Origin: Bacteroidales bacterium
GTDB lineage: Bacteria; Bacteroidota; Bacteroidia; Bacteroidales; WCHB1-69
Reading direction: 5' to 3'
Assembly: GCA_045600905.1 (NCBI GenBank)
Contig: JAZRYT010000189.1
Location: 33,748-97,747 of the forward strand
Length of the DNA stretch: 64,000 nt
Shown: positions 10,311 through 36,853 of the stretch, piece after piece
Numbering within the stretch: the first letter of the stretch is position 1
Layout: every line of letters starts with the position of its first letter
Notes under the pieces: model-generated
Told to the model about the DNA's origin: nothing
The model's input: only the letters and a program-made list of their open reading frames with translations
The model's database searches: none
Program-made: the position numbers and the translations under genes

Positions 10311-11291
10311 ATGAAAAGATTACTATACACCATTCTTGTAATAAGTATTGTCTTGGTCAGCTCCTGCAAGCAGAAAGCCACCCCGGCGTTCAAAGAAGAC
10401 AATTTTTCCACGGGGAAAGCCGGCGAGATGATTTTAGCCATTGACACGACCTATTGGACGAAAGCCGCACGCACGCAGATTTACAATGTCATCCAACAGC
10501 CGCAGCCGGCCATCAACCAGATACAGCCGATGTTTGACGTCATCGAATGCAGCAACAAGGACTTTTTGGCTTCCTTCACGCGCCATCGCAACATCGTGCA
10601 ATTCGACTACAACAAGAACTACTCCAACAATTCCTACGAATTGAAGAAGAATCCCTATACAAGTCCTCAAATCCAGGTTGTCATCCGAGGCAACAGCTGC
10701 GATTCCTGTTTGGCGTTATTCCTCCAACATCAGGATGAAATCATCCAAGCCATGTATGACAACGACATCGCGCGCCTGCAGAATGCGCACCGCAAGCTCA
10801 ACAATCCCAATGTCGAGAAAAAAATAAAGGAGAAATTCGGTTTCAATATGACTATTCCCGAAAGCTATTTTGTGGGCAGAGAAGAAGCCGACTTCCTATG
10901 GTTGTGCTGCCGCACGCCGAAGAATGACCGTTTCATTATGATTTACAAGTCTCCGGCCTACGAGCTAAACACAGAGAACATTGTCTATGAACGCAATAGG
11001 ATTACCAAAGCCTATATTCAGGGTGCCGTACAGGGTGCATACCCCATTGTAGCTGACCTTGAAGGGTTCCCCTTGTCTCAAAAATACAACATCCATTATC
11101 ACAACGGCATTGAATTGCGCGGCCTTTGGGCATCCGTACGCGATAAAATGGGCGGACCATTTTACAGTTTTACGATGCTCAGCCCCGACAAAACTTCCTG
11201 TATTACCGTTGACGGCTTCGTTTATGCTCCTCAAGAACAGAAGAGAGACTACCTTCGCGAAGTTGAATCTATCGTTAAATCAATCAATTAA
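10311..11291 (+). CDS. uncharacterised lipoprotein (DUF4837-like)
   Basis: Lipoprotein signal ILVISIVLVSSC. The 326 aa sequence resembles, from memory, the Bacteroidota DUF4837 family. No catalytic motif was recognised. Confidence 0.45.
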   Translation: MKRLLYTILVISIVLVSSCKQKATPAFKEDNFSTGKAGEMILAIDTTYWTKAARTQIYNVIQQPQPAINQIQPMFDVIECSNKDFLASFTRHRNIVQFDYNKNYSNNSYELKKNPYTSPQIQVVIRGNSCDSCLALFLQHQDEIIQAMYDNDIARLQNAHRKLNNPNVEKKIKEKFGFNMTIPESYFVGREEADFLWLCCRTPKNDRFIMIYKSPAYELNTENIVYERNRITKAYIQGAVQGAYPIVADLEGFPLSQKYNIHYHNGIELRGLWASVRDKMGGPFYSFTMLSPDKTSCITVDGFVYAPQEQKRDYLREVESIVKSIN

Positions 11292-11309
11292 TAAAAATTT
11301 TTCATCGCC

Positions 11310-11339
11310 TGTCACGAAATCGGTCTTTGTTACGTCTAA
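11310..11339 (+). promoter_or_regulatory. candidate ECF-type promoter TGTCAC-N17-CGTCTAA
   Basis: A -10-like CGTC(TAA) lies 10 nt upstream of the sigma-factor ATG, with a -35-like hexamer 17 nt further up. The match to generic ECF promoters is only approximate. Confidence 0.3.
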
Positions 11340-11348
11340 GCAAGCGTG

Positions 11349-11906
11349 ATGAAAGAGATTTACTCATTTGATGAAATAATAGACGGCTGTCTGAAGAACG
11401 ACCGCAAAGCACAACACAGACTTTACGATGTTTTTTCAGGAAGTATGTACGTACTCTGTCTTCGCTATGCGCAAAGCAAAGAGGAAGCGGAGGATATTCT
11501 CATCGATGGTTTTTCGAATGTGTTTTCCCACTTGCAGGAATTTCAACGAAACAGCTCATTGAAGACCTGGATTCACCGCATTTTCATCAACACGGCATTG
11601 GATGCCTTGCGGTCTAACCGAAAGTATCGTTTTAATGAGTCTTTTGATGAAACGACAGATGAATTCGAGCAAAGCCAGCTGGATTGCGACATCATCACCA
11701 AGTTGGAAGCAAAGGAGATTCTCAACCTAATGAGTAAAATGCCGGACGAATACCGAATCATTTTCAACTTACGGGTCTTTGATGGCTGTTCCTTTAAAGA
11801 AATCGCCCAAGAGCTCGGCAAGAAGGAGGACACGGCACGAATGTACTTTCACCGAGCGCGACAATGGCTGATAAAAGCCTTTGGAGAAGAAGAGGACAAA
11901 TCATAG
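11349..11906 (+). CDS. RNA polymerase sigma-70 factor, ECF subfamily
   Basis: Region 2 (EEAEDILIDGFSNVF..., WIHRIFINTALDALR) and region 4 (FKEIAQELGKKEDTARMYFHRARQWL). ATG 11349 is preferred over GTG 11346. Confidence 0.85.
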   Translation: MKEIYSFDEIIDGCLKNDRKAQHRLYDVFSGSMYVLCLRYAQSKEEAEDILIDGFSNVFSHLQEFQRNSSLKTWIHRIFINTALDALRSNRKYRFNESFDETTDEFEQSQLDCDIITKLEAKEILNLMSKMPDEYRIIFNLRVFDGCSFKEIAQELGKKEDTARMYFHRARQWLIKAFGEEEDKS

Positions 11907-11961
11907 CCACTTCCAAAATCCCGAACTCAAGTCGAAACAGTAACGATGAAAAATTAGAATT

Positions 11962-12882
11962 ATGAAAAATATAAACGACATATTAGCCCACTACGAAGAG
12001 CAGCCACCCGCAGAGTGTTGGGACAAGCTCAGCAGCCATTTAGACAAGATTATGCCCACCGGGGAGAGTGCTGCAACTTCGACCTCCGCTGCAGTAAAAG
12101 GGGCTACCGCCACACTTTCCAAGGCCGTTACCGCTAGTATCATCGGCGCAGTGGCCGTGGCCGCTATCACCATTGTGGCTGTAACCGCCGCACACAAGTC
12201 TTCAGCCGAAAAGCCGACAGCCGACAACCAGACGAATGTAGTAGCAGACAGCAGCATTGTTGAGAATATTGAAGATGCCCCATCCATCTATCTTACTGAG
12301 GCGAAAGAGGCAAGCAGCGCTTCCCCAAAAACCGAAAACGAAGTCGCCCCATCGTCTAACACTTCTGCGAAATCTGCAGAAAATCCCACCCCAGAGAGCA
12401 ACATTCCCTTTGTCAGTCAAACGGCCCAAATGAATGTTCCTTCCGCTTCCGTACAACCGAAGGCCGCCCCTACGGTCACCAAGACAATAGCCCCGATTCA
12501 ATCAGCTTCTGTAACCAAGGCTCCGCTTCCCAAGAACTCGACCATTGCGCAACAGCATCAAAACGATCCTGTTGTTCAAAGCCATTCGGAGGAAGAAGAT
12601 TTCAGTTGGAATACACCTGTCAAATTAGAGATCCCCAATGTTTTCACGCCCAACGGAGACGGATACAATGAAGTGTTTATGATTAAAGGGTTAGAGAACT
12701 GTTCCAAGCGGCAACTCGTTGTTCGAAACCGAAGCGGCAAAATCGTCTATCGTTCAAACAATTACGAAAACACTTGGAACGGCGACAATTGTCCAGACGG
12801 CACATATACCTACCAACTCTTCTACAACAACAATGGCATAGACCAGAGTATGAGCGGCACAGTCGCCATCATTCGAAAATAA
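11962..12882 (+). CDS. membrane-anchored anti-sigma-like protein ending in a T9SS type-B sorting domain (gliding-motility C-terminal / CHU_C domain)
   Basis: The N-terminus HYEEQPPAECWDKLSSHLDK is followed by a single TM helix (AVTASIIGAVAVAAITIVAVTAA) and an A/S/P/T-rich linker. The last ~90 aa (PNVFTPNGDGYNEVFMIKGLE...NRSGKIVY...NTWNGD...DGTYTYQL...GTVAIIRK) match the type-B CTD consensus by eye. Confidence 0.6.
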   Translation: MKNINDILAHYEEQPPAECWDKLSSHLDKIMPTGESAATSTSAAVKGATATLSKAVTASIIGAVAVAAITIVAVTAAHKSSAEKPTADNQTNVVADSSIVENIEDAPSIYLTEAKEASSASPKTENEVAPSSNTSAKSAENPTPESNIPFVSQTAQMNVPSASVQPKAAPTVTKTIAPIQSASVTKAPLPKNSTIAQQHQNDPVVQSHSEEEDFSWNTPVKLEIPNVFTPNGDGYNEVFMIKGLENCSKRQLVVRNRSGKIVYRSNNYENTWNGDNCPDGTYTYQLFYNNNGIDQSMSGTVAIIRK

Positions 12883-12891
12883 AAGGAGGAA

Positions 12892-15495
12892 CTACTTCTT
12901 CCCTGTCAGCAGTTGTTGAATTTCATTCAACTTCATCAAAGCCTCCACAGGGGTCAGGCCGTTGATATTCAATCCTACAATAATATCCTTGACTTCCAAC
13001 AAAAGAGGGTCATCCAAATTGATAAAACTCAACTGATAACCAGGGGAAGATTTCTCAATGGTGGGTTTTCCTTTGTTGGAATCATCGCGGTTCTTTTCCA
13101 ACTGTTTGAGGACCTCTTCGGCACGTTTCAGCACCTTTGTCGGCATTCCGGCCATTCGTGCCACGTGAATACCGAAGCTGTGCTCACTACCACCGGGTTC
13201 CAATTTGCGAAGGAAAAACACCTTGTTGTCGATTTCCTTGACCGACACGTGGAAATTCTTAATGCGAGGGAATTGGGATGCCATATCGTTCAGCTCGTGA
13301 TAATGGGTGGCGAATAGAACTTTAGCGCGATGATAGGGATTCTCGTGCAGAAATTCCGCAATAGACCAGGCAATGGAGACGCCGTCGTAGGTACTGGTTC
13401 CGCGTCCGATTTCATCCAGCAGGATGAGGCTGCGGTTGGAGATATTATTCAAAATACTGGCCGTTTCATTCATTTCCACCATAAAGGTAGATTCTCCTGT
13501 CGAAATGTTGTCGGAAGCACCGACACGGGTGAAAATCTTATCTACAATGCCGATTTCCGCTTTCCTGGCAGGGACAAAGCAACCCATCTGCGCCATCAGG
13601 ACAATGAGGGCGGTCTGACGCAACAGCGCGGACTTACCGGACATATTGGGGCCGGTAATGATAATAATCTGCTGTTTGTCATTATCCAACATCACGTCAT
13701 TGGAAATATAGGGCTCTCCCGGGGGCAATTGCTGTTCGATAACCGGATGTCTGCCGTCTTTAATTTTCAACATCGTACCCTCGTTCACATCGGGCTTCAC
13801 ATAACGGTTTTCTTTGGAAACGTTGGCGAAACAGAGCAGGACGTCCAAACGTGCCGCCAATCTCGCATCCAACTGAATCATTGACATATAGTCCAACAAA
13901 CCGACCAACAGTTCGTTGAAGAGTCTGGCCTCAATTTCGAGCATCTTGTCTTGTGCGCCCAAAATCCTGGTTTCCAGTTCCTTTAATTCCTCGGTTATGT
14001 AACGTTCGCCGTTGGTAAGTGTCTGTTTGCGTGTCCATTCGGGTGGTACTTTCGATTTGTGTACGTTCGTCACTTCCAGATAGTAGCCGAACACGTTGTT
14101 AAAGCCGATTTTCAGGGACGGGATTCCTGTACGTGCTGATTCTCGATGTTGGATATCATAAAGCACGCTGCGACTGTTGGTTGCCAATGCGAACAATTCA
14201 TCCAGTTCCTTATCCACACCACGTTTAAAAACATTTCCTTTGCTGACTAGTACAGGAGGATCTTCCTGAATGGACTTTTCAATTCGTTTGCAAATCGTAA
14301 GACATGGGTTCAACTGTTCGGCAATTTTGGTCAATGCCGGATGTTCTGCTTTCTGGCAGAGATGCTTAGTCTCCTCCACGGCACGCAAAGCCCGGGAAAG
14401 TTGGAGCACTTCTCTCGGATTGATTTTTCCGGTGGCAATTTTGGACACGGTACGTTCGATATCGCCGATTCGCTTCAATGTGACCGTTAAATCCTGCGCC
14501 AAGTCCTCGTTTTGCATAAAGTACTCAACGATGGACAGACGTTCATCAATCCAGACTTTTTCCTTGAGGGGCATCAGCATCCATTTGCGCAACATTCGGG
14601 AGCCCATCGGGGTCTGCGTCTGGTCAAGCACCTGCAGCAAAGTCACGGCATTCTCATTCGGACTTTGTACGAGTTCCAGATTGCGAATGGTGAAGCGGTC
14701 GAGCCAGACGTAATGTTCTTCTTCAATGCGGTTGATTTTGTTTATATGTTGGATTTTATGGTTCTGCGTTTCGTACAGATAATGTAGTGCCGCGCCTGCC
14801 GCAATGATGCCGTTGGGAAGATTATCCACGCCAAAGCCTTTTAAAGAAGTGGTTTGGAAATGTTTTGTCAAAAGTTCATTGGCAAAATCCGTCATAAAGA
14901 CCCAATCGTCAAGGGTGGTCAAGAGCATTTTTTCGCCGAAATGTTCTTTAAAGGCAGAGACTTTGGCCTTTTGGATAACGAGTTCTGAAGGTTTGAAGTT
15001 TTGGAACAGTTTATCCACGTAATCGTAATCACCTTCCGCGAGATAGAACTCGCCTGTGGAAATATCCACGAAGGCGACGCCTGAGTTTTTGTCCGTCAAC
15101 TGTATGGCTGCCAAAAAGTTGTTCTCACGCTGTTCGAGGACTTTGTCATTGATGGAGACACCCGGTGTGACCATTTCGGTAATGCCTCGTTTGACGAGGG
15201 TTTTGGTCAATTTGGGGTCTTCGAGTTGTTCGCATATAGCCACGCGCATACCGGCGCGGACGAGCCTCGGCAGATAAACATCAAGCGCGTGATGTGGGAA
15301 GCCTGCCAGTTCCGTTTGGGAAGGGCCTTTCCCGTGTTTGGTCAGTGTAATGCCCAAAATCTTGGAAGATTTAAGCGCATCTTCCCCGTAGGTTTCATAG
15401 AAATCGCCCACTCGGAAGAGCAGGATAGCATCGGGGTGTTGGGCTTTGAACTTGTTGTATTGCTTCATCAACGGGGTTTCGACAGACTTTTCCAT
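12892..15495 (-). CDS. mutS: DNA mismatch repair protein MutS
   Basis: 867 aa with the N-terminal mismatch-binding GDFYE motif, Walker A GPNMSGKS and STFMVEM. Confidence 0.95.
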
Positions 15496-16001: not shown

Positions 16002-16505
16002 TTATTTCGTTATACCGAGTTGTTTTTTGACAGCTTCCGTCAAATCATCAGAATCAGCGTGGAATGCCAACGTGGTAATATCAAAAACGTATGTGTAGTT
16101 GCCAGCTTCCGCCACTTTCTTAATAGCTTCTATTATTTTTTCCTGAAAGGGTTTTAAAAGTTCCATCTGCTTGTTTTGGAGTTCTTCTTCGCTGATGGAG
16201 GCAAATTCCTGAATACGGGCATAGAGTTTGGTCATTTCATCCTCTTTGACTTTCAAAATAGCAGAAGAAGCTCCAGAATTAGCCATTTGGGCGTAAGCCG
16301 CTTCTTTCTCCTTAAACTCACTGACCATTTGTTGGCCGGTCTCTTCCAATTCCTTCTGATAATCACGAAGGGCAGCTTGTGCCGTATCAATACCGGGTAC
16401 GTTTTGCATAATAGTGCCATAATCCACGTGACCAAACTTCGCTTTTTGGGAGAAGCCAGCGACTGTGAGAAGAAGGCAGAAAAGAATCAATGTTAGTTTT
16501 TTCAT
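16002..16505 (-). CDS. OmpH/Skp family periplasmic chaperone (paralog 3)
   Basis: Signal peptide, 167 aa, coiled-coil-rich, with a C-terminal YTYVFD motif. It is the third gene downstream of bamA. Confidence 0.8.
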   Translation of the reverse strand: MKKLTLILFCLLLTVAGFSQKAKFGHVDYGTIMQNVPGIDTAQAALRDYQKELEETGQQMVSEFKEKEAAYAQMANSGASSAILKVKEDEMTKLYARIQEFASISEEELQNKQMELLKPFQEKIIEAIKKVAEAGNYTYVFDITTLAFHADSDDLTEAVKKQLGITK

Positions 16506-16517
16506 AGCTCGATTCCC

Positions 16518-17015
16518 TTATTTAATTCCTAATTCTTTCTTTACCAGTGGAGTGATGTCATCGCCATTGCCATAATAGAGCAGAATCTTGGTATCGAAGA
16601 TATAGGCATAGCCATGTTCTTTGGCCACTTTGTTAATAGCGTTTTGAATGGCATCCTGAAAGGGTTTGGCCAATTCATACTGCTTTTCTTCCATATCATC
16701 TTGCGCATTGGCTTGGAATTCCTGAATACGAACACCCAGGTCTTCCAATTCTTTTTCGCGAACTTGTCTTACGGCAGAAGACATCGTACCAACTTCACGG
16801 TCGAATTTGTCCTTTTTCTGTTGGTATTCGGTCATCATACTCTGATACATAGCCTGTAAATCATCTTGGAAAGCCTTCAATTTGATTTGAAGAGAGTCAA
16901 CGCCCGGCATCACTTCCAGAATTTCGCTGGAATTGATATGACCATACTTTTGAGCGTCAGCAGTGCCCACAGAGAATAAAACAGCAGCTGCAACGAGTAA
17001 TAAAATCTTTTTCAT
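16518..17015 (-). CDS. OmpH/Skp family periplasmic chaperone (paralog 2)
   Basis: Signal peptide, 165 aa, with a YAYIFD motif. Confidence 0.8.
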   Translation of the reverse strand: MKKILLLVAAAVLFSVGTADAQKYGHINSSEILEVMPGVDSLQIKLKAFQDDLQAMYQSMMTEYQQKKDKFDREVGTMSSAVRQVREKELEDLGVRIQEFQANAQDDMEEKQYELAKPFQDAIQNAINKVAKEHGYAYIFDTKILLYYGNGDDITPLVKKELGIK

Positions 17016-17051
17016 AATACGTATAAATGTGTTTTAAGTTATTAATTTCAA

Positions 17052-17582
17052 TTAGTCTTCCAATTCTTCATTGACGGAAACGCCCAATTTTTGGAGGATT
17101 GCCTGATTGATATCCCATTTGGGATCAGCATAGATGATGGTCATTTCGCCTGCGGTATCGAAGACGAACGCGTAACCTTTTTCCTTCGCATAATCATTGA
17201 CCGTGGAAATCACTCTGTCCTGAATCGGTTTCACCAGTTCTTCTCTTTTTTTGAAGAGGTCGCCATCTTGACCGAAACGTTTTTTCTGCAAATCCTTGGC
17301 AGCTTTTTCCTGATTGATAATAGCTTCTTCACGGTTCTTTTTGATTTGCTCCGGCATAGTCACAGCCTCAACCTGGTATTTTCTGTACATAGAGTCAATA
17401 GAGGCGAATTTGGCTTCTATTTCCTTTTGCCATAAGACGGCTACTCTGTTGAGTTCGGCCTGCGCTTCTTTATATTCTGACATATTGGAGAGAATATATT
17501 CGGAATTGATGTAGGCATATTTTTGTGCGAATCCAGTGAGGGAAAGAAGCACAACCATTGCAGATAATAATAGTTTTTTCAT
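17052..17582 (-). CDS. OmpH/Skp family periplasmic chaperone (paralog 1)
   Basis: Signal peptide, 176 aa, with a YAFVFD motif. It lies immediately downstream of bamA. Confidence 0.8.
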   Translation of the reverse strand: MKKLLLSAMVVLLSLTGFAQKYAYINSEYILSNMSEYKEAQAELNRVAVLWQKEIEAKFASIDSMYRKYQVEAVTMPEQIKKNREEAIINQEKAAKDLQKKRFGQDGDLFKKREELVKPIQDRVISTVNDYAKEKGYAFVFDTAGEMTIIYADPKWDINQAILQKLGVSVNEELED

Positions 17583-17635
17583 TGTTTCAAATTTTAAAAA
17601 CGTGTTGGTAACGTGATAATGTCGTTTTTATTGTA

Positions 17636-20263
17636 TTAATCGATAGATTGGTTAATAGAAATGTGGAAATGGCTACCCCAATCTGCTTTTTGGCGACCGG
17701 GCACCTCGTCGAAGCCGTAACCCCAGTCGAAGCCCAACAAGCCGAACATCGGCAGATAGACGCGTACACCAAGACCGGCGGACTTATACAGGTTGAACGG
17801 ATTATATTGGCGTTTGTCAATCCAACCCTTGCCAGCTTCCAGGAAGGCCAGCACATAGATCGTGGCCGAAGGATTCAGCGTTATCGGATAGCGCAATTCC
17901 GCTGTAAACTTGTTGTAAATGCAAGCACCCGTTGACATACCATCTTGATATGGTGAAAGGACTTCGTCCGAATAGCCGCGCATACCGATGACCTCACGGC
18001 CGTCGTACGCGAATGTCGATAATCCATCGCCACCCAAATAGAATCTACCAAACGGTGTGATGCCGATAGATTTATTGTAGCAGCCCATAAAGCCCATTTT
18101 CAAACGTACGTTCAACACGAGGTTATCGACAATGCGTGTAAACCACGAAGCGTTGAACTTCCATTTATGGAACTCCAGCCATCTGTATTTATCTTGGTCG
18201 GTAGCACCTGTGAAATCCTTACCGCCAATCAGTGAATACGGCGGTGTCAGCTGCACACTGAACATTATATTTGAGCCTTCACGCGGATAAATCGGCGCAT
18301 TCACAGAATTTCTGGAAAGTGTGAAAATATAGCTTAAACTATTGGCATAACCATTGTTAAACACATAATAGCCAGACCAATTCGTCACTGTATAATATTC
18401 GTAAGACAAGGTATGGGACATTTGGAAATAGTCATCCGGCCATTTCAGCTGACTTGCCAAAGAGATGGAAGCACCTGCAATGCTGGAGGAGCGATAGGAC
18501 GTGGTATCGCTTTTCTTCATACCGTTGGTTTGTTTTTGATAATAGACGCCCATTGTCAAAGCATTGGGTTTCTTGCCGCCCAACCAGGGTTCCGTAAACG
18601 AGAGATTGTAGTATTGATACCAAGAGCCGTTTGTGGAGACATTGAACGCGAGACGTTGTCCGTCGCCACCTGGAATCGGAGCCCAAGCCTCTTTTTTGAA
18701 GAAATTGCGTGTTGAGAAGTTGTTAAACGCGATACCGGCGGTAATCACAAAACCGGTAGCACCATAACCGGCGCTCAGGGACAGCTGGTCTGAAGAGGTT
18801 TCCTCTACCACATAATTGATATCCACTGTACCGTCGGCCTCGTTCGGTTTGGGCTGCACATCCATCTTCTCCTGATTGAAATAGCCCAAAGACATCAGCA
18901 CCTGCTGGGTTCTGATAATGTCCGCTCGGTTGAACAACTGGCCGGGAATCGTAGTGATTTCACGCATGATCACATTGTCATTCGTTTTGGTATTTCCCGA
19001 GATTGTGATTTCATCATAACGTGCAATCTTACCTTCCCGGATACGGATTTCTATATCAATGGAATCATTGACGACGGCAACTTCAACAGGATTGGCATTG
19101 AAGAACAAATAACCATTATTCATATACAAAGATGCCAAATCCTCACCATCCTCCTTCATCGTCAGATTCTTCGTCAACAGTGTCTGATTATAGACATCAC
19201 CCTTGTTGATACCCAGCAATCTAGACAGGAGAGATGTGGGATAAACGGTATTGCCGACGAAGGTGATATTTCTAAAATAGTAGCGGGGACCTTCATTGAC
19301 ATCAATGTCAATATGCATATCATGTCCCTCCAGATAATACGTATCACGTACAATGACGGCATCACGATAACCCAGCTCATTGTACTTGTCTATCAATTTG
19401 AGCTTATCGGCTTCGTAAGTTTCCTTGGTGAATTTTGATTTTTTGAAGATACGGAGTTTCACACGATCTGCAAAATAATCATCCAAATGTTCCATAATAT
19501 CCTTGGACTCGTAATAGCCGGGGTGCTTCGTGCAATAGGCAATAGCTGTATCCATTTTATACATCGGCATAAAGAGGAATTTTTCCTTTGTTTCCTTCAT
19601 AGAGCGAAGCAGTTTGGCATCCGTCACCCCTTCATTGCCATTGATATTGATTTTGGAAATTTTGACTTTTTTGGATTTTTGGATATCGAAAAGGATGCTC
19701 ATCGCATTCTTCATTTTCTCATCGGGAATTTCCTGCACATTGACGGTACAGCTATAGAAGCCCTTATCAACATAATACCTGCGAATAATGTTGGCGCAGG
19801 TGGTCTTCATATTGTCGTTAATGATGTTACCCTGGGAGATGTTGAGTTTCTCACGCAAATCGTTTTCCTCGGTTTTGGTTGTGCCCTTAAAGCCGAAAGA
19901 CACCAGACGGGCGCGGTCTTCCAAGCGGACGTCCAAGAAGGCAATGTCGCCGGCCACACGAGTGACTGTTATTTCAACATCATCATAAAGACCTGTTTTC
20001 CATAAGGATTTAACGCTTTTGGAAATTTCATCACCGGGGATTTCTATTCTATCGCCCACGTGGAAACTAAGCAGACGTTGGTCCAACGGTGCTGTTCCTG
20101 ACGAGGTGATACCGCCGATTTCGTATTCAACAGGATGGGCATAATCTATGCGAACAGGCTCACTGCCAGACCCGGAGCCCACAACCACCTGCCCGTAAGA
20201 CCTTACAGTACACGTTGTTACGACAATCAACAGGAAAATTATTACACGATAATAAAATCTCAT
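17636..20263 (-). CDS. bamA: outer membrane protein assembly factor BamA
   Basis: 875 aa with a signal peptide, repeated POTRA-like N-terminal modules and a C-terminal beta-barrel (…FGFDWGYGF…HFHISINQS). Confidence 0.9.
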   Translation of the reverse strand: MRFYYRVIIFLLIVVTTCTVRSYGQVVVGSGSGSEPVRIDYAHPVEYEIGGITSSGTAPLDQRLLSFHVGDRIEIPGDEISKSVKSLWKTGLYDDVEITVTRVAGDIAFLDVRLEDRARLVSFGFKGTTKTEENDLREKLNISQGNIINDNMKTTCANIIRRYYVDKGFYSCTVNVQEIPDEKMKNAMSILFDIQKSKKVKISKININGNEGVTDAKLLRSMKETKEKFLFMPMYKMDTAIAYCTKHPGYYESKDIMEHLDDYFADRVKLRIFKKSKFTKETYEADKLKLIDKYNELGYRDAVIVRDTYYLEGHDMHIDIDVNEGPRYYFRNITFVGNTVYPTSLLSRLLGINKGDVYNQTLLTKNLTMKEDGEDLASLYMNNGYLFFNANPVEVAVVNDSIDIEIRIREGKIARYDEITISGNTKTNDNVIMREITTIPGQLFNRADIIRTQQVLMSLGYFNQEKMDVQPKPNEADGTVDINYVVEETSSDQLSLSAGYGATGFVITAGIAFNNFSTRNFFKKEAWAPIPGGDGQRLAFNVSTNGSWYQYYNLSFTEPWLGGKKPNALTMGVYYQKQTNGMKKSDTTSYRSSSIAGASISLASQLKWPDDYFQMSHTLSYEYYTVTNWSGYYVFNNGYANSLSYIFTLSRNSVNAPIYPREGSNIMFSVQLTPPYSLIGGKDFTGATDQDKYRWLEFHKWKFNASWFTRIVDNLVLNVRLKMGFMGCYNKSIGITPFGRFYLGGDGLSTFAYDGREVIGMRGYSDEVLSPYQDGMSTGACIYNKFTAELRYPITLNPSATIYVLAFLEAGKGWIDKRQYNPFNLYKSAGLGVRVYLPMFGLLGFDWGYGFDEVPGRQKADWGSHFHISINQSID

Positions 20264-31045: not shown

Positions 31046-31909
31046 TTATTGTGCTTTCCATGTCGAATTAAACCATTGACGTTGCTTCAACCATTGTTTA
31101 GATGCCTGCAAAGCGTGATTGATGAAAATTTCAAAATCTATTGAAAGTGGATAAATTCTATCTTGAATTTCTTTCTCCGACAAAACATACATTCCATGCC
31201 ACCCATTAGTGGGAAATTCCTTCGAACCACCATTTACCATAAATTTGAATTTAGGTAATTTCAAAAATTCTCCATCCAAGACGAAAGCCACACTCCAAAA
31301 AAAAGACTCCATTGCATGCAAGGATGGTTCACGATCCCTCGTCACTCTATCCCTAACACTCGTTTTACATTGTACGCAACCAAAACAATATTTCTTGCCA
31401 TTGTCATTTACAATACAAAACAAATCAAAAATATTACCTTTTACCTGTTCTCTTAGCCAACTCAAATCTCGAGGTTCATTTTTCAATTCTTCATTCTTCA
31501 ATAAAACATTCAAATCTCTCTGTAGAATAATTTCTATACCATATTCTTTCAATGACAACGACGACAATTCCTTGATCACTTCTTCAAAAGCATGACCGCT
31601 TGATTTTTTCCAGCTTTGTTCTGCACTGATAACCTTTTGGATAGTTTCTATATCTCCTATTCCAGATTTTCTAAATAAATGGACTTGATAAATAGCATTC
31701 CACAATTGCGAAACACATGGATCCTTGAAATTTTTCAATCCCTCAACAATACAACAACGAATTGCTGATTTTTGCGCTTCTTTATCCCACTTTTCTTTAA
31801 TAGAATCTGGCGAAGTATCTCTTTTAAAGTTCTTTTCACAAGTATTCATATAAGATTCATATTCATTAGAATATGTCTTATAACAAAATTCATAATACTT
31901 ATTTTCCAT
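31046..31909 (-). CDS. type II restriction endonuclease, PD-(D/E)xK fold (candidate CCGG/CCNGG-family)
   Basis: Overlaps the m5C methyltransferase gene by 11 nt. Contains D-x17-Q-x-K-x3-R-D-R-x5-E (FDLFCIV...GCVQCKTSVRDRVTRDRE). The region is AT-rich. Confidence 0.6.
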   Translation of the reverse strand: MENKYYEFCYKTYSNEYESYMNTCEKNFKRDTSPDSIKEKWDKEAQKSAIRCCIVEGLKNFKDPCVSQLWNAIYQVHLFRKSGIGDIETIQKVISAEQSWKKSSGHAFEEVIKELSSLSLKEYGIEIILQRDLNVLLKNEELKNEPRDLSWLREQVKGNIFDLFCIVNDNGKKYCFGCVQCKTSVRDRVTRDREPSLHAMESFFWSVAFVLDGEFLKLPKFKFMVNGGSKEFPTNGWHGMYVLSEKEIQDRIYPLSIDFEIFINHALQASKQWLKQRQWFNSTWKAQ

Positions 31910-33086
31910 TATAATTTAGATTAAACAAATAAATGATTTGCACTCCCCAAGCATAAGCTAACAGAGGAGGGACAGCATCGCCAATCTGCTCATACTTATC
32001 TTGAACTGCTCGATCAATATGAGGAACTATATAAGGACCTCCAACAAAATCATACGAGTCTGGGAAAGACTGTAAACGCGCACATTCCCTAACCGTTAAA
32101 CACCTATCATAATTTGGATGAACAAATTCATCCAAGCAATGACTTGTCACTGTGGGAGATGGTGCATCGGGAACAAGACGATAATTTCGTTTTATGAATA
32201 ATTTTTTAGGCAACACCCTTTCTAACTGCAATTTCTGTCGTTCCTCTCCTTGATATCGATCAAAAAGAGATTTGAGGCTTTCACCTTGATTTAAAAGATG
32301 GAATCTTTTCAAAGTACATGCTCGATGATTCATTGGTTTATGATTCATAATACATCCTGAAGACATTGTCTCTCGTTTCCAAAAAGAATCATCACGCATT
32401 AACGTTTGATATTCCGATATTTCATCTGTATATTCTGTTTGTTCTTCATTCGAATTTGGTATTACATTTGGCAGTCCCGCCAAAGCATCTCTAACTGTTA
32501 CTGCTTTTCTATATTGATTTGGTTCTGACAACCACCATTGTTCAAAACGAGTTGCCAATATGAAAAAACGATTCCGCTTTTGAGGAACACCAAATTTAGT
32601 AGCATCAAGAACCACTTGAATCATATTTCCATAACCAGCATCCTTTAATTCTTCACGGAGTACCTCAACTATCAATTTGTTTGCATCTTTAGATACTTTT
32701 TTTGAAGTAATGGCAGGGACATTTTCAAAGAGAATCATTTTAGCATTGGACATTTTTGCTATTCTAATACCTTCTCTAAATAAGAACTGTCTATGGTCAT
32801 AAAAAGAGCGGGAAGTATTTCCTGCCGTTGAAAAGGTTTCACACGGCATTCCAGAAGTAACAAGATCAACACCTTCTTCAGGAACAAAAGGAAGAACTTG
32901 TTCTTCAGTAACATCTCTTATATCCGAGTTTATAACATGAACTTCAGGATGATTGGCAGAATAAGTCTCGCAACAACTTTGAATGTATTCAATCGCAACA
33001 AGTGTTTTGAAACCAGCAGCATGAAGGCCTGTACAAATCCCTCCGGGACCTGCAAAACAATCTATATGCGTAAATACTTGTTTCAT
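31899..33086 (-). CDS. DNA (cytosine-5)-methyltransferase
   Basis: Motif I FAGPGG, motif IV GMPCETFS, motif VI ENV, motif VIII QKRNRFF and motif X GDAVPP. Confidence 0.9.
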   Translation of the reverse strand: MKQVFTHIDCFAGPGGICTGLHAAGFKTLVAIEYIQSCCETYSANHPEVHVINSDIRDVTEEQVLPFVPEEGVDLVTSGMPCETFSTAGNTSRSFYDHRQFLFREGIRIAKMSNAKMILFENVPAITSKKVSKDANKLIVEVLREELKDAGYGNMIQVVLDATKFGVPQKRNRFFILATRFEQWWLSEPNQYRKAVTVRDALAGLPNVIPNSNEEQTEYTDEISEYQTLMRDDSFWKRETMSSGCIMNHKPMNHRACTLKRFHLLNQGESLKSLFDRYQGEERQKLQLERVLPKKLFIKRNYRLVPDAPSPTVTSHCLDEFVHPNYDRCLTVRECARLQSFPDSYDFVGGPYIVPHIDRAVQDKYEQIGDAVPPLLAYAWGVQIIYLFNLNYNGK

Positions 33087-33113: not shown

Positions 33114-36100
33114 CTAGCGTCTAAAGTAGTTCACTGCATTTTTGAAAAGATCTTGGCACTTGTCGCCTTCGATATTCTTGTACAGATTCTCGCCTTTACG
33201 TTCGCTGTGGCCCATCTTGCCGAGGATAAGTCCGTCGGCGGAAACGATGCCTTCGATGGCGTAGAATGAGCCGTTCGGGTTGTCGGCCGGGTCCATACTC
33301 ACGTTGCCATTTTCATCGCAATATTGGAAGGCCACCTGTCCGTGTTCGAACAACTCCTTGGCCAGTTCCTTAGTGACCACGAATTTGCCTTCACCGTGGC
33401 TGACGGCGATGTTGTGCATATCGCCAACCTTGAAAGAGGTGAGCCAAGGAGAAGCCACCGTTGCGATGCGCGTACGCACGAGACGGGAAATGTGGCGATT
33501 GATGTTGTTGCGGTACAGCGTCGGGGATTCGGGAGTGATATCACCCAAACGTCCGTAAGGCAGCAAACCGGATTTCACCAAAGCCTGGAAGCCGTTGCAG
33601 ATACCGAGAACCAGTCCCTTGCGGGCAAGCAGGTCGTTAATGGCAGCCTTAATCTCCGCATTGTTCAACACCGTAGCGATAAACTTGCCACTGCCGTCAG
33701 GCTCGTCACCGGAGCTGAAACCGCCGCTGAGTGCCAAAATCTGAGATTCGCGTATAGCAGCGGACAACTCTTGGATGGAACCGTTGATTTCGGTTTCATT
33801 GAGGTTACGGAAAACGAAGATGCGCGGATCGGCACCAGCATCTTCAAATGCTTTGGCCGTGTCATAATCGCAGTTCGTGCCAGGGAACACCGGCAGGATG
33901 ACTTTGGGCTTTTCAATGCGGACGGGCGATTTCATCACCGGAGCGCATTTGCTGTTGACTGCAAATTCAGAGCCTGTGGATGTCGTTTCGTTGGCAGCCA
34001 TCTCCGGATAAAGTTTTCCATAGACGCCACGCCAAGCGGCCAGGCAGGCTGCCTTATCCATAGCTTCGCCATTGACGATGAATTGGTCATCGACCACACC
34101 CAATTCAACAGCGAACTCAGAGTTCAGCTTTTCGGTTGTTTCCACCACGAAGCTTGCATAACCGTAATCAAACAGATTAACAGCGGTATTCACGTTGAAT
34201 CCGAGGTCGTTACCGAAACTCATTTTGCAAAGTGCTTCCATAATGCCGCCGTATTGCAGCGTGAAAGCGGAAACAATCTTGCCGTTGAGAATGTTCTCGC
34301 GCATATATTCAAATTCGCGCTTCGTATAGTCAATATCGGGAAGATTATCAACGATTTTATTCTTTATCAAATAGATATGATTGCCTTTTTGTTTGAATTC
34401 AGGAGAAATGATATTTCCCGCATTTTCAGTGGTGATGGCAAATGAGACGAATGTCGGTGGAACATTCATTTTCTTGAACGTGCCGCTCATAGAGTCCTTG
34501 CCGCCCAAAGAAGCGAGGCGGAACTGGTGCAGCATCCAAACAGAGCCGAGCATAGCGGCACAGGGCTTGCCCCAACGGGTCGGTTCGTGGCCCATCTTCT
34601 CGAAATATTCTTGGAAGGTGAATCTGATTTTGCGATAATCAGCACCTGTGGCCACAATCTTGGACATAGATTCCAAAATAGCATACACAGCGGCGTGGAA
34701 CGGGGAACGCAACGCGATGTACGGGTTATAGCCGAACGCCATAATACTTGTCGTGTTGGTATGGCCGTGCAAGACGGGAAGTTTCTGAGCGGAAACCTGG
34801 GCTTCCGTCAATTGGTTCTTGCCACCGAACGGCATCAGCACGGTGGTAGCGCCAATCGTTGCGTCAAACATTTCAATGAGACCCTTTTGAGAAGCCACAT
34901 TCGGATTGGTCAGCACACTGACAGCTTTTTCCTGCATAGTGTCGCCTGTTACGGGTTGGCCTTCCAACACATTGTCGGGCACAGCGTTGATGACGACTTC
35001 CGTCTTCTGGCGCACGCCGTTGGTATTGATAAAGTCGCGGTTGAGGTCAACGATGGTTTTGCCGCGCCACGTCATACGCAGGCGGTTGGTATCTGTCACG
35101 TGGGCAATGATGTTGGCTTCAATATTTTCCTGACGGCAATAGTCGAAGAACACCTCGACATCTTTGGGGTCCACCACGACGCTCATACGTTCCTGTGATT
35201 CGCTGATGGCCACTTCTGAGCCATTCAAGCCTTTGTATTTTGTTCTTACGGTATCCAAATCGATATCCAAACCGTCGGCCAGCTCACCGATAGCGACGCT
35301 GACACCACCAGCGCCGAAGTCATTGGACTTCTTCACCAGACGGGTTACTTCGGGGCGGCGGAAGAGATGTTGGATTTTACGTTCTTCCGGAGCATTACCT
35401 TTTTGAACCTCAGCGGCGCAAGTATCGAGAGATTTCTCGTTGTGTTCCTTGGAGGAGCCGGTTGCGCCTCCGATACCGTCACGGCCTGTGCGTCCACCGA
35501 ACATAATGACCACATCGCCGGGTTTTGGTGTGTCGCGACGCACGTGGTCAACGGGAGCAGCACCTACCACGGCACCGATTTCCAGACGTTTGGCCTGATA
35601 ATCGTTGTGATAGATTTCGCGCACGTGCGTGGTTGCCAAACCGATTTGGTTGCCGTATGAGGAATAGCCGGATGCAGCGCTTTTGGAAATCACAGACTGC
35701 GGGAGTTTGCCTTCGAGAGTTTCGCTCATTGGCGCATTGATGTTGCCGGCGCCGGTCACGCGGAGAGCCTGATAGACGTAGCTACGGCCGCTCAGCGGGT
35801 CGCGAATAGCACCGCCCACGCAGGTGGCAGCTCCACCAAACGGTTCGATTTCCGTCGGATGGTTGTGCGTCTCGTTCTTGAACATCAACAGCCATTTCTC
35901 TATTTTTCCATCCACATCCACATCAATATAGATGCTGCAGGCATTGTTTTCTTCGGAAACCTCCATATCTTCCAAATTGCCGGACATCCGTTCGAACTTG
36001 CCATTGATGGAAGCCATATCCATCAAAGTCTGCGGTTTCACACGATCCTTATAGACCTGCTTGCGCATTTCAAGGTAGTCGTTGTACGCAGCTTGGATTT

Positions 36101-36827
36101 GGTTTTGGAAATTGGAGGGTGTAAACGTAATCCGGGCTAATTCTGTTTCAAAGGTCGTATGGCGGCAGTGGTCGCTCCAATAGGTGTCCAACAACTTGAG
36201 TTCCGTATCGGAAGGCTCGCGTTTTTCCTCATTTTTGAAGTATTCTTGAATGAAACAGATGTCTTCCAAAGACATTGCGAAACCCATTTTCACGCGGAAA
36301 GCTTCCAATTCGTCTTTGCTCCACTGATTGAATTGTTCATAAACGGGGACATCCTGGACATCGGGATTTTCAGCCAATTCCAGCACACTCATATCCTTTT
36401 GACGGGCTTCCACTTCGTTTATGCAGAACTTTTTCACACTGGCAAATTGTTCGGGAGTGAAATCCGCATCAAAGACATAGACTTTTGCACTCTTAATAAC
36501 GGCTTCCGTTTTAGGATCCAAAAGGGAAAGGCACTGCATAGCGCTGTCGGCACGTTGGTCGAACTGGCCGGGTAAGAATTCCACGGCGAAGTATGTTTTG
36601 CCTTCCAATGGAAAGTCCTCATAGATATTATCCACCACAGGTTCGGAAAGCACGCCCACCTTGGCTCTTTCCAAAAGGGTTTCATCCACGTTGAAAATAT
36701 CATAGACCACCAACTGGCGAAGATTCTTGATATTCAAGTTAAAGTTATGATTAAGAGTTTCTTTCAAGCTGACGGCTTCCACATCGAAACCGGCTTTTTT
36801 TTCTACAAAAATACGAGCATTGCGCAT
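33114..36827 (-). CDS. purL: phosphoribosylformylglycinamidine synthase (single-chain large PurL)
   Basis: ~1240 aa comprising an N-terminal domain, an FGAM synthetase core and a C-terminal glutaminase (GICNGFQ). ATG 36827 (MRNARIFVEKK) is preferred over 36842, which lies only 12 nt from the -7 box. The start remains uncertain. Confidence 0.9.
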   Translation of the reverse strand: MRNARIFVEKKAGFDVEAVSLKETLNHNFNLNIKNLRQLVVYDIFNVDETLLERAKVGVLSEPVVDNIYEDFPLEGKTYFAVEFLPGQFDQRADSAMQCLSLLDPKTEAVIKSAKVYVFDADFTPEQFASVKKFCINEVEARQKDMSVLELAENPDVQDVPVYEQFNQWSKDELEAFRVKMGFAMSLEDICFIQEYFKNEEKREPSDTELKLLDTYWSDHCRHTTFETELARITFTPSNFQNQIQAAYNDYLEMRKQVYKDRVKPQTLMDMASINGKFERMSGNLEDMEVSEENNACSIYIDVDVDGKIEKWLLMFKNETHNHPTEIEPFGGAATCVGGAIRDPLSGRSYVYQALRVTGAGNINAPMSETLEGKLPQSVISKSAASGYSSYGNQIGLATTHVREIYHNDYQAKRLEIGAVVGAAPVDHVRRDTPKPGDVVIMFGGRTGRDGIGGATGSSKEHNEKSLDTCAAEVQKGNAPEERKIQHLFRRPEVTRLVKKSNDFGAGGVSVAIGELADGLDIDLDTVRTKYKGLNGSEVAISESQERMSVVVDPKDVEVFFDYCRQENIEANIIAHVTDTNRLRMTWRGKTIVDLNRDFINTNGVRQKTEVVINAVPDNVLEGQPVTGDTMQEKAVSVLTNPNVASQKGLIEMFDATIGATTVLMPFGGKNQLTEAQVSAQKLPVLHGHTNTTSIMAFGYNPYIALRSPFHAAVYAILESMSKIVATGADYRKIRFTFQEYFEKMGHEPTRWGKPCAAMLGSVWMLHQFRLASLGGKDSMSGTFKKMNVPPTFVSFAITTENAGNIISPEFKQKGNHIYLIKNKIVDNLPDIDYTKREFEYMRENILNGKIVSAFTLQYGGIMEALCKMSFGNDLGFNVNTAVNLFDYGYASFVVETTEKLNSEFAVELGVVDDQFIVNGEAMDKAACLAAWRGVYGKLYPEMAANETTSTGSEFAVNSKCAPVMKSPVRIEKPKVILPVFPGTNCDYDTAKAFEDAGADPRIFVFRNLNETEINGSIQELSAAIRESQILALSGGFSSGDEPDGSGKFIATVLNNAEIKAAINDLLARKGLVLGICNGFQALVKSGLLPYGRLGDITPESPTLYRNNINRHISRLVRTRIATVASPWLTSFKVGDMHNIAVSHGEGKFVVTKELAKELFEHGQVAFQYCDENGNVSMDPADNPNGSFYAIEGIVSADGLILGKMGHSERKGENLYKNIEGDKCQDLFKNAVNYFRR

Positions 36828-36853
36828 AATAATGGGTTTCAAAAATTAGGGCG

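Follow-up and report, generated by a model that had tools for sequence, protein, structure and literature searches.

The sigma factor gene and its probable operon

The window analyzed here is a stretch of Bacteroidales DNA of 64,000 nucleotides. On its forward strand, a gene for an ECF sigma factor (11349-11906) is followed, after a gap of 55 nt (11907-11961), by an ORF of 306 aa (11962-12882). An initial annotation had described the same arrangement with a sigma factor of 186 aa; this length is obtained from an in-frame GTG at 11346, and the ATG at 11349 gives a protein of 185 aa. The locus comprises the following features.

11309-11340, forward strand: ECF-type promoter-like site, cTGTCAC-N17-CGTCTAAg, upstream of the sigma gene
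11349-11906, forward strand: ECF (group 4) sigma-70 factor, with matches to Sigma70_r2, Sigma70_r4_2 and TIGR02937
11907-11961, forward strand: intergenic spacer of 55 nt, without terminator-like structure
11962-12066, forward strand: N-terminal module, residues 1-35 of the 306-aa protein, MKNINDILAHYEEQPPAECWDKLSSHLDKIMPTGE, predicted as two short helices
12124-12192, forward strand: predicted single transmembrane (TM) helix, residues 55-77, AVTASIIGAVAVAAITIVAVTAA, a hydrophobic stretch of 23 residues
12196-12627, forward strand: S/A/P/T-rich linker, residues 79-222, predicted as disordered from pLDDT
12628-12882, forward strand: T9SS type-B CTD (CHU_C), residues 223-306, and the stop codon, with matches to PF13585 and TIGR04131

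The sigma factor matches Sigma70_r2 (3.6e-11), Sigma70_r4_2 (1.3e-15) and TIGR02937 (89.7 bits, cutoff 42.9). It has sigma-2 and sigma-4 domains only, and its 185 aa agree with the size of ECF (group 4) proteins, which is about 170-200 aa. The closest solved relative is SigW of B. subtilis (E=1.3e-15). The best specific NCBIfam model, NF058625, reaches 88 bits against a cutoff of 130, and NCBIfam models do not discriminate ECF groups. The protein is 36-49% identical to the sigma partners of the homologs of the 306-aa protein described below and 38% identical to the partner of a barrel-type protein of the Dma architecture, as against 26% to an unrelated ECF sigma factor from a carrier genome. 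The higher identity to the barrel-type partner is indirect evidence for a possible place in the ECF21 group of Das1/EcfO-like sigma factors. Similarly, the sigma partners of proteins sharing the N-terminal module are 35-49% identical among themselves and 26% identical to an unrelated ECF sigma factor.

The site at 11309-11340 is presumed to be the promoter of an autoregulated operon. In 17 of 23 ortholog loci, the sigma gene is preceded at an equal distance by the same layout (TGTAAC or GCAAC, 17 nt, CG(T/A)C), with TGTAAC-N17-CGTC as the recurring consensus. When the 64 kb were searched with the conserved pattern and a PWM, only the operon's own site was recovered, and no regulon members were found in the window. 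The PWM score was reached by 2 of 20 shuffles and is not significant within the window alone, so that the assignment relies on positional conservation.

The two genes are probably co-transcribed, since the spacer carries no terminator-like structure and the intergenic distance in homologous loci is short (-3 to 64 nt), the genes often overlapping. Terminator-like sites were absent throughout 11100-13100. In each of the 23 homolog loci whose upstream DNA is long enough, an ECF sigma gene in the same orientation lies directly upstream, and the flanks vary. Thus, the synteny whose absence had been named in advance as an argument against the pair is kept. A control was provided by a contig scan in which the full-length alignment was reduced to the generic motif TPNGDGxN[DE], returning 79 ordinary CHU_C loci and only one member of the family; an ECF sigma gene directly preceded 1 of these 79. 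The pairing of sigma factor and CHU_C protein is therefore not a chance juxtaposition, and the two genes are presumed to form an autoregulated ECF sigma/anti-sigma operon.

The conserved neighborhood of the pair consists of three OmpH/Skp genes and BamA, and not of T9SS genes. The 64-kb window contains no core T9SS genes, only a GldG-like gene. No linked T9SS gene, PorP/SprF-like gene or regulon member was found with the pair, either in the window or at the homolog loci, and a PorP/SprF-like gene adjoined the pair in none of eight gene-called loci.

Architecture of the 306-aa protein

The N-terminal module is the second most conserved part of the protein. Mean pairwise identity is 44% in this module, 14% in the linker and 57% in the CTD. 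W20 is invariant, and P15, L27 and P32 are nearly so. An AlphaFold2 model built on an alignment of 28 sequences places helices at residues 4-10 and 17-30 (pLDDT ~75), followed by disorder over residues 36-125 and beyond. The module has no match in Pfam, NCBIfam or the PDB. Models of classical anti-sigma domains from Pfam and NCBIfam (ZAS/zf-HC2, RskA, FecR, class I ASD) and the HxxxCxxC pattern likewise gave no match in the 306-aa protein at E<=0.1. The module is presumed to be a cytoplasmic sigma-binding peptide.

An exhaustive profile search of cluster representatives with the module matched 256 of them. The matches include sigma-adjacent proteins in which three to seven tandem copies of the motif are followed by a TM helix and a C-terminal outer-membrane beta-barrel, and E-values go down to ~1e-19 against sigma-adjacent proteins of the Dma architecture. 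One of these, P0144, combines the module (E=9e-10) with a TM helix, an intrinsically disordered region and an OMP_b-brl_2 barrel (6.3e-13), and has a sigma gene directly upstream. These profile matches show homology of the module with the N-terminal part of other single-pass proteins encoded beside sigma genes in Bacteroidota, among them proteins of the Dma architecture, as distinct from Dma1 itself. The position and topology-compatible layout of an anti-sigma factor, proposed in the initial annotation, are upheld, and the shared module adds to them.

Residues 55-77 form a hydrophobic segment with a mean Kyte-Doolittle value of 2.48. Such a segment is present in all 76 homologs, beginning at residues 50-73, and no cleavage motif is conserved after it. 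With 23 residues and 54 residues before it, the segment is too long and too distal for the h-region of a signal peptide. As judged by these heuristics, the protein has no cleavable Sec signal peptide of the kind found in T9SS cargo, its first hydrophobic segment lying behind the conserved module of 35 aa, and the N-terminus does not resemble the cleaved signal peptide that would have spoken against an anti-sigma factor.

The linker shows pLDDT below 50 over most of its length. It had been described as A/S/P/T-rich, without a recognizable fold and about 130 aa long; composition and lack of fold are as stated, whereas the distance from the end of the TM helix to the PNVFTPN motif is 150 aa in the window protein. 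The length from TM end to CTD is kept within 129-157 aa (mean 145, sd 7, n=76), despite the 14% pairwise identity. A single TM helix followed by a long disordered tether, as in Dma proteins, is thus found throughout the 76 homologs, and the place of the functional passenger domain of T9SS cargo is taken by this poorly conserved linker. A DPVVQ motif (residues 202-206, nt 12565-12579) is conserved in the alignment ~20 residues before the CTD.

The C-terminal sorting domain

The last part of the protein matches CHU_C (PF13585) over residues 223-301 of 306, with E=2e-19 and 69.9 bits (cutoff 27). The type-B model TIGR04131 gives 47.9 bits (cutoff 35), and the type-A model TIGR04183 stays at 13.4 bits, under its cutoff of 23. 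The domain is thus a T9SS type-B CTD, including the extreme C-terminal position typical of this class. With an HMM trained on 83 ordinary cargo CTDs, the window CTD scored 106.8 bits, the family 88-110 bits (median 102) and the cargo itself 73-121 bits (median 104.5). By this measure, the family CTDs are as near the cargo consensus as real cargo CTDs. These HMM results agree with the initial description of a type-B CTD as the only folded extracytoplasmic part of the protein. In a few family members, the TPNGDGxND motif has decayed.

AlphaFold2 predicts the CTD as a beta-sandwich with pLDDT 85-95. The top PDB matches found by Foldseek include, all with weak E-values, the CTD of PorZ, the CTD of NucA in the T9SS translocon complex 8glk and the CTD of mirolase. 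Many unrelated Ig-like domains are also among the Foldseek matches. A disulfide between Cys247 and Cys277 was considered and rejected, both residues being present in 97 sequences, only the first in 58 (some of which are regex failures) and neither in 35.

Extent of the family

Around 80 full-length homologs share the architecture of N-terminal module, TM helix, linker and CHU_C, and the N-terminal profile alone yields at least 88 further CHU_C-bearing cluster representatives. A word-index protein search with the N-terminal alignment returned 0 matches, although the same profile gives family members ~100 bits. Judged on sequence and gene order, the sigma factor with its CTD-ended putative regulator is a real, conserved family from uncultured Bacteroidales. 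In NCBI and JGI, the only label given to the homologs is that of gliding motility-associated C-terminal domain proteins; a regulatory role is thus invisible in current annotation.

P0218, in which the N-terminal module is joined to a Por_Secre_tail domain downstream of a sigma gene, was considered as a variant with a type-A CTD and rejected as the product of a chimeric metagenome scaffold. Its identity is 95% to a CHU_C member of the family over residues 1-109, 97% to an LpxI protein over residues 102-132 and 71% to a real type-A cargo protein over residues 149-206.

Comparison with known systems

The initial annotation knew of no comparable pair, a view that is overstated in the light of two described systems. 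The Dma proteins of Bacteroidota, a family of anti-sigma factors that span both membranes, comprise a sigma-binding peptide at the N-terminus, a TM helix, a disordered tether and a beta-barrel in the outer membrane (Pardue et al., PNAS 2024, PMC10927553). Residues 1-40 of Dma1 suffice for sigma binding, and full-length Dma1 reaches both membranes (PMC10927553). In P. gingivalis, the CTD of PorA already connects the T9SS with the sigma factor SigP through PorY (PMC7712824, PMC12152298).

The 306-aa protein has much of the Dma body plan. Its gene lies directly downstream of an ECF sigma gene, a short N-terminal region and one TM helix precede a long, presumably periplasmic disordered tether, the C-terminal module is of a kind normally destined for the outer membrane, and both families are confined to Bacteroidota. 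In contrast, the eight-stranded barrel (OMP_b-brl_2) of Dma is absent and a CHU_C beta-sandwich stands in its place, which is why the protein is not filed as a Dma member but only as a variant of the body plan. The homologous N-terminal module in sigma-adjacent proteins of Dma architecture indicates that the type-B CTD is carried where Dma carries its barrel. The tether of ~145 aa compares with roughly 250 aa, estimated from the sequences, in the barrel-type proteins P0144 and P0098, and the N-terminal module is present as a single copy, unlike the three to seven tandem copies of many barrel-type relatives. Whereas Dma is inserted into the outer membrane by BAM, the 306-aa protein would depend on the T9SS or on a PorP-like protein. 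It looks like an undescribed variant of the Dma-type anti-sigma body plan.

With PorA-PorXY-SigP, the pair would have in common that a T9SS CTD serves as the input of a regulatory pathway ending in an ECF sigma factor. The CTD of PorA binds PorY in the periplasm and activates PorXY-SigP, and PorA tethered to the inner membrane still signals (PMC12152298); it has been proposed that a feedback loop reports on T9SS function (PMC7712824, PMC12152298). PorA differs in being a cargo protein with a signal peptide and a type-A CTD, in acting through the two-component proteins PorY and PorX and in its restriction to Porphyromonas, while in the 306-aa protein a type-B CTD is fused directly to the presumed anti-sigma factor. 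Type-B CTDs bind PorP/SprF-like outer-membrane barrels (PMC9143113, PMC12618676), and orphan type-B CTDs exist in F. johnsoniae (PMC12618676). The CTD resembles those of type-B cargo (SprB/SprF, PG1035/PorP, Fjoh_3952/3951) in consensus strength and extreme C-terminal place (PMC9143113, PMC12618676). Unlike such cargo, the protein lacks a cleavable signal peptide, a passenger domain and an adjoining PorP/SprF-like gene, and it has instead a predicted inner-membrane anchor behind a conserved N-terminal module, next to a sigma factor.

A third point of comparison is cell-surface signaling, in which an outer-membrane beta-barrel signals to an anti-sigma factor of the inner membrane, and this in turn to an ECF sigma factor, a route that the pair may share. 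In FecA/FecR/FecI and in SusC-like/anti-sigma/ECF systems, the periplasmic domain of the anti-sigma factor contacts the N-terminal extension of a TonB-dependent transducer. The contact module of the 306-aa protein would be a sorting domain instead, with the T9SS or a PorP-like barrel as its partner. No FecR domain was found in the protein and no TonB-dependent receptor nearby.

Proposed mechanism and alternative explanations

The leading explanation, to which a probability of about 0.45 is assigned, is a trans-envelope anti-sigma tether whose CTD is docked to the T9SS or to a PorP-like outer-membrane protein and from which the sigma factor is freed by proteolysis. In the cytoplasm, residues 1 to ~35-50 would retain the sigma factor; residues 55-77 would cross the inner membrane, and the disordered tether of ~145 aa would cross the periplasm. 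Type-B CTDs are a class that the T9SS recognizes, and this CTD would most likely fix the outer end of the tether by docking to the T9SS or to a PorP-like outer-membrane protein, which would then act as a barrel in trans. Loss or change of docking, possibly triggered by T9SS failure or overload, outer-membrane damage or changed envelope spacing, would expose the tether to proteolysis, and intramembrane cleavage would then free the sigma factor. What we infer for this pair is that the sigma factor is bound, that the protein lies N-in/C-out, that the CTD docks to the T9SS or a PorP-like protein and that proteolysis releases the sigma factor, along with the direction of signaling. A point against the docked tether is that proteins secreted as T9SS cargo usually have their signal peptide cleaved and their N-terminus free. 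The lack of a known anti-sigma domain in the N-terminal module, of an adjoining PorP/SprF-like gene in the gene-called loci, of core T9SS genes in the window and of a recognized regulon member, as well as the decayed TPNGDGxND motif of a few members, also count against it. A tentative reading takes the anti-sigma factor as a built-in 'reporter cargo', its type-B CTD being recognized by the T9SS as in other substrates while its other end stays fixed in the inner membrane and holds the sigma factor. Engagement, pulling or failure of the T9SS would then directly cause the tether to be cleaved and the sigma factor to be set free; this is possible, though doubtful. If true, the protein would be a single-polypeptide sensor of secretion-system activity, and a T9SS substrate could stay threaded across the whole envelope.

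The CTD might also stay in the periplasm and never dock to the outer membrane, the protein being an anti-sigma factor with a soluble-type sensor on a long leash. Such a CTD could compete with the CTDs of cargo for T9SS components in the periplasm, or could be bound or degraded when unsecreted cargo builds up. Full translocation of a protein without a free N-terminus is awkward, no PorP/SprF-like gene adjoins the pair, and there is a precedent in the binding of the PorA CTD to PorY, with inner-membrane-tethered PorA still signaling (PMC12152298). However, a leash of 145 +/- 7 aa without conserved sequence fits a spanning tether better, the nearest relatives by N-terminal module use a barrel embedded in the outer membrane (PMC10927553) and a complete cargo-like CTD consensus is kept, which leaves the periplasmic sensor a possible but rather unlikely explanation. 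The same consensus bears on whether the domain has any tie to the T9SS at all. CTDs are generic beta-sandwiches, the Foldseek matches are weak and include many unrelated Ig-like domains, TPNGDGxND is lost in some members, and the neighborhood of three OmpH/Skp genes and BamA is not one of T9SS genes; CHU_C could thus be a small Ig-like ligand-binding domain of the periplasm in a conventional envelope-stress sigma/anti-sigma pair. An unconstrained domain would be expected to drift, yet the family CTDs score like cargo on the cargo-trained HMM (median 102 against 104.5 bits) and occupy the extreme C-terminus, as the sorting function requires. Such reuse of the fold is considered improbable.

The cargo-grade type-B CTD could instead mark an ordinary secreted product, a T9SS cargo protein with a long leader or signal anchor, released at the surface and controlled by the sigma factor instead of controlling it. 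Behind its hydrophobic segment, the window protein reads VTA|A, which looks like an AXA signal-peptidase site, and the NCBI and JGI annotation as gliding motility-associated C-terminal domain proteins mentions nothing else. On the other hand, this AXA-like motif is not conserved in the homologs, the 23-residue hydrophobic segment starts only at residue 55, and a non-conserved disordered linker is found where a passenger domain should be. The module before the TM helix, second in conservation and recurring, sometimes in three to seven copies, in sigma-adjacent membrane proteins with other C-termini, would be unexpected for a leader peptide, and a secreted product is regarded as very unlikely.

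Significance of the family

The existence of a widespread sister family with a T9SS sorting domain in place of the barrel suggests a general principle, namely that the far end of the tether needs only a module routed to the outer membrane. The barrel and CTD versions are expected to follow different assembly routes, through BAM or through the T9SS and PorP-like proteins, and would therefore constitute a natural experiment. Outside Porphyromonas, the docked tether would tie T9SS function directly to transcription, in a way that can be tested. In these uncultured Bacteroidales, the pair may connect gene expression with the outer membrane or with the secretion apparatus.

The gene pair and its domains

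An ECF sigma gene is followed after 55 nt by a 306-aa ORF, and no terminator-like structure was found between the two.

Features of the gene pair in the window
11309-11340, upstream of the sigma gene: ECF-type promoter layout recurring in homolog loci
11349-11906, + strand: ECF sigma gene (ATG start; alternative in-frame GTG at 11346)
11962-12882, + strand: 306-aa ORF, CHU_C-ending presumed anti-sigma factor

The product of 11349-11906 is an ECF sigma factor, with domain HMM matches to Sigma70_r2 (3.6e-11) and Sigma70_r4_2 (1.3e-15) and 89.7 bits against TIGR02937 (cutoff 42.9). The 306-aa protein comprises an N-module (residues 1-35), a 23-residue hydrophobic helix (residues 55-77), a segment rich in S, A, P and T, and a T9SS type-B C-terminal sorting domain (CTD). 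In agreement with the type-B assignment of the initial annotation, the C-terminus matches PF13585 (CHU_C; 2e-19, 69.9 bits, residues 223-301) and the type-B sorting model TIGR04131 (47.9 bits, cutoff 35), and scores 13.4 bits with the type-A model, under its cutoff of 23. AlphaFold2, with a 28-sequence alignment, predicts N-terminal helices at residues 4-10 and 17-30 (pLDDT about 75), a long middle region under 50, and a CTD folded as a beta-sandwich (85-95). The topology is predicted from heuristics and analogy. The ORFs, ECF sigma factor, transmembrane helix and CTD described initially were all recovered; the linker has the S/A/P/T-rich composition noted then, but measures nearer 145-150 aa than the ~130 aa proposed.

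Conservation and sigma synteny

A search of 5.8 billion proteins yielded about 80 full-length homologs of the same layout (291-320 aa), all from metagenomes or MAGs, the named ones being Bacteroidales. Mean pairwise identity in the family alignment is 44% over residues 1-35, 57% in the CTD and 14% in the linker; in the N-module, W20 is invariant and P15, L27 and P32 are near-invariant. Despite its low identity, the linker keeps a length of 129-157 aa (mean 145, sd 7, n=76 homologs). The motif DPVVQ (window 12565-12579, residues 202-206), about 20 residues before the CTD, stands in this otherwise unconserved linker and is conserved in most of the family; it might serve as a protease site or extend the surface by which the CTD is recognized.

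At all gene-called contigs (six diverse homologs and one GTDB locus) an ECF sigma gene lies directly upstream, often overlapping, and the outer flanks vary. Scanning metagenomes with the N-terminal motif as seed added 17 loci, 15 of them with enough upstream DNA; in each of these 15 a sigma gene is present, at -3 to +64 nt. With window-type and scan loci pooled, adjacency holds at 23/23 informative loci, compared with only 1 of 79 loci of ordinary CHU_C proteins, where the small proteins bear plain signal peptides together with passenger domains. The pairing is not due to chance, and the synteny check suggested earlier for orthologs comes out in its favor.

The window site, already proposed as a candidate promoter, is one copy of a layout (TGTAAC or GCAAC, 17 nt, CG(T/A)C) found at the same distance upstream of the sigma gene in 17/23 loci. 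The pattern is present once in the window, which is not significant on its own, and no regulon members were found.

Genomic surroundings

The window contains a GldG-like gene (ABC_transp_aux 7.6e-77); no core T9SS genes or other CTD proteins were found within it. CTD cargo genes adjoin the pair in two homolog loci, and no PorP/SprF-like gene linked to the pair was found in the window or the homolog loci.

A recurrent neighborhood surrounds the pair (window 10311-11291 and 16002-20263; homolog loci L081, L085 and L086). Directly upstream, the window and 3/7 other gene-called loci have a same-strand gene for a DUF4837 lipoprotein, and the conserved promoter falls between this gene and that of the sigma factor. 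The opposite strand carries, downstream, three OmpH/Skp genes and BamA (POTRA), or Peripla_BP_2 and MM_CoA_mutase. At the two deepest-branching family loci (L087:1788-3140, L001:1479-2831), a gene just upstream, in divergent orientation to the pair, encodes a sigma-54-dependent response regulator (Response_reg and Sigma54_activat). Farther along the window, two restriction-modification systems (31046-33086 and 38630-41581) lie on either side of purL (33114-36842) and a sulfatase gene; one comprises a BsaWI-like endonuclease and a C-5 cytosine methyltransferase, the other an MmeI-family type IIG enzyme in which all five MmeI domains are present.

The N-module and its relatives

The N-module has no match in Pfam, NCBIfam or PDB. 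An exhaustive search of 1.84 billion cluster representatives with a profile of residues 1-80 returned 256 proteins, most of them from the same CHU_C family, with the CTD present in 88 new representatives. About 30 differ: in these, a single copy or 3-7 tandem copies of a 22-residue core, NYExxPPxxxWxxIxxxLD, precede a transmembrane helix and a long low-complexity region. These end in an outer-membrane beta-barrel (P0144, OMP_b-brl_2 6.3e-13; P0206 and P0098 weaker) or in an unannotated C-terminal domain. An ECF sigma gene lies directly upstream in 4/4 of those looked up, and the partner sigma factors share 35-38% identity with the window sigma, which reaches into the lower part of the range within the family (36-49%) and exceeds the 26% of an unrelated ECF sigma encoded in a carrier genome. 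The adjacency and the closer partners argue that the N-module is a sigma-linked, predicted cytoplasmic module common to proteins with different extracytoplasmic ends.

A third sigma-adjacent class has the N-terminal motif in 2-6 tandem copies, a transmembrane helix, a linker and, at the C-terminus, a conserved domain (...W(K/R)xKFxxWRxKM...PSxxNFLDI...) that matches nothing in Pfam or NCBIfam. Its members include P0122, P0126, P0129, P0131, P0134, P0140, P0168, P0172 and P0196, among others, and the locus L090:1519-2733; the gene directly upstream of P0134 encodes an ECF sigma.

Another two sigma-adjacent membrane proteins (L031:2380-4249; P0220 at L110:2-1809) combine a CHU_C or CHU_C-like end with Ig-like passenger regions. 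The former (428 aa) has F for W in the motif and was missed by the family profile; the latter (512 aa) repeats the N-motif three times and matches CHU_C weakly (26.7 bits). On the basis of these two proteins, the sigma-linked CTD architecture may have had more than one origin. An apparent N-module with a type-A CTD (P0218, locus L109) was discarded as a chimeric metagenome scaffold, which joins three parts, one from a CHU_C family member, one from the N-terminus of LpxI and one from the tail of a type-A cargo, and cautions against relying on single short scaffolds.

Comparison with Dma proteins

The Dma (dual membrane-spanning anti-sigma) family, described in 2024 in Bacteroides thetaiotaomicron, is defined by an N-terminal sigma-binding peptide, a transmembrane helix, a disordered tether and an outer-membrane beta-barrel, and by a gene that adjoins that of an ECF21 sigma (PMC10927553). 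Residues 1-40 of Dma1 are enough to pull down its sigma factor Das1, the full-length protein is detected through both N- and C-terminal tags, and the barrel is present in outer-membrane vesicles; the authors proposed that outer-membrane perturbation leads to proteolysis and sigma release (PMC10927553). The orthologous Reo/EcfO pair of P. vulgatus responds to envelope-damaging toxins (PMC13114119).

The window protein resembles Dma in its sigma adjacency, transmembrane helix and tether, and its N-module is common to proteins of Dma architecture, but it lacks the defining barrel. It is therefore a variant of the Dma body plan rather than a Dma member.

Proposed mechanism and alternatives

The adjacency at 23/23 loci and an N-module common to sigma-adjacent proteins support the anti-sigma reading well, and the two genes are very probably a sigma/anti-sigma pair. 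Type-B CTDs are needed for T9SS export, and cognate PorP/SprF-like outer-membrane beta-barrel shuttles bind them and anchor them at the surface (PMC9143113, PMC12618676). The CTD of a T9SS cargo can also act in regulation: that of the P. gingivalis cargo PorA signals via PorY/PorX to the ECF sigma SigP (PMC7712824, PMC12152298). Combining this knowledge with the Dma precedent, we infer every step beyond the architecture itself. The N-module would keep the sigma factor at the inner membrane and the ~145-aa tether would span the periplasm, a role supported by its constrained length. Its contour length is roughly 50 nm, by our estimate about twice the expected periplasm width. The CTD would dock the far end to the T9SS or a PorP-like barrel, so that the barrel is supplied in trans, not in cis, and lost or changed docking would lead to proteolysis and sigma release. 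This full model is held tentatively, at a probability of about 0.45; secretion-sensing by the pair is a plausible hypothesis.

The main competitor, which we consider improbable, is that the CTD stays periplasmic and acts like that of PorA. Reuse of the CHU_C fold with no T9SS connection is distinctly less likely. Against a cargo HMM built from 83 ordinary cargo CTDs, a set picked for similarity to this CTD, family CTDs scored 88-110 bits (median 102; window CTD 106.8), and cargo CTDs 73-121 bits (median 104.5); these scores suggest that the family CTD has kept the cargo consensus without drift. Foldseek top PDB matches include the CTDs of PorZ, of NucA in the T9SS translocon (8glk) and of mirolase; the E-values are weak, with many generic Ig-like folds among the matches. 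The TPNGDGxND motif has decayed in a few family members. Slightly less probable still is that the 306-aa protein is secreted in the ordinary way and has a long leader. The docked, tethered anti-sigma remains the preferred reading.

In a termite- or rumen-type subgroup (L095:825-1730, L102:85-963) the hallmark TPNGDGxND is lost (IPNIFTPDENGRNYRF, IPNIFTPSDNGKSYYF); the remaining CHU_C domain and sigma adjacency are kept. C247 and C277 (nt 12700-12702 and 12790-12792) are common in family CTDs and absent from the generic CHU_C consensus. A conserved disulfide between them is unsupported since co-occurrence is not clean (97 with both, 58 scored with the first only, some of these being regex failures, and 35 with neither).

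A CTD-bearing version is mentioned neither in the Dma papers nor in a full-text search on Dma1 and type IX secretion. The initial claim that nothing comparable had been described is nevertheless reduced by the Dma and PorA precedents. What is new is a widespread, unannotated, Dma-like family of probable anti-sigma factors that carry a T9SS type-B sorting domain as their outer end.
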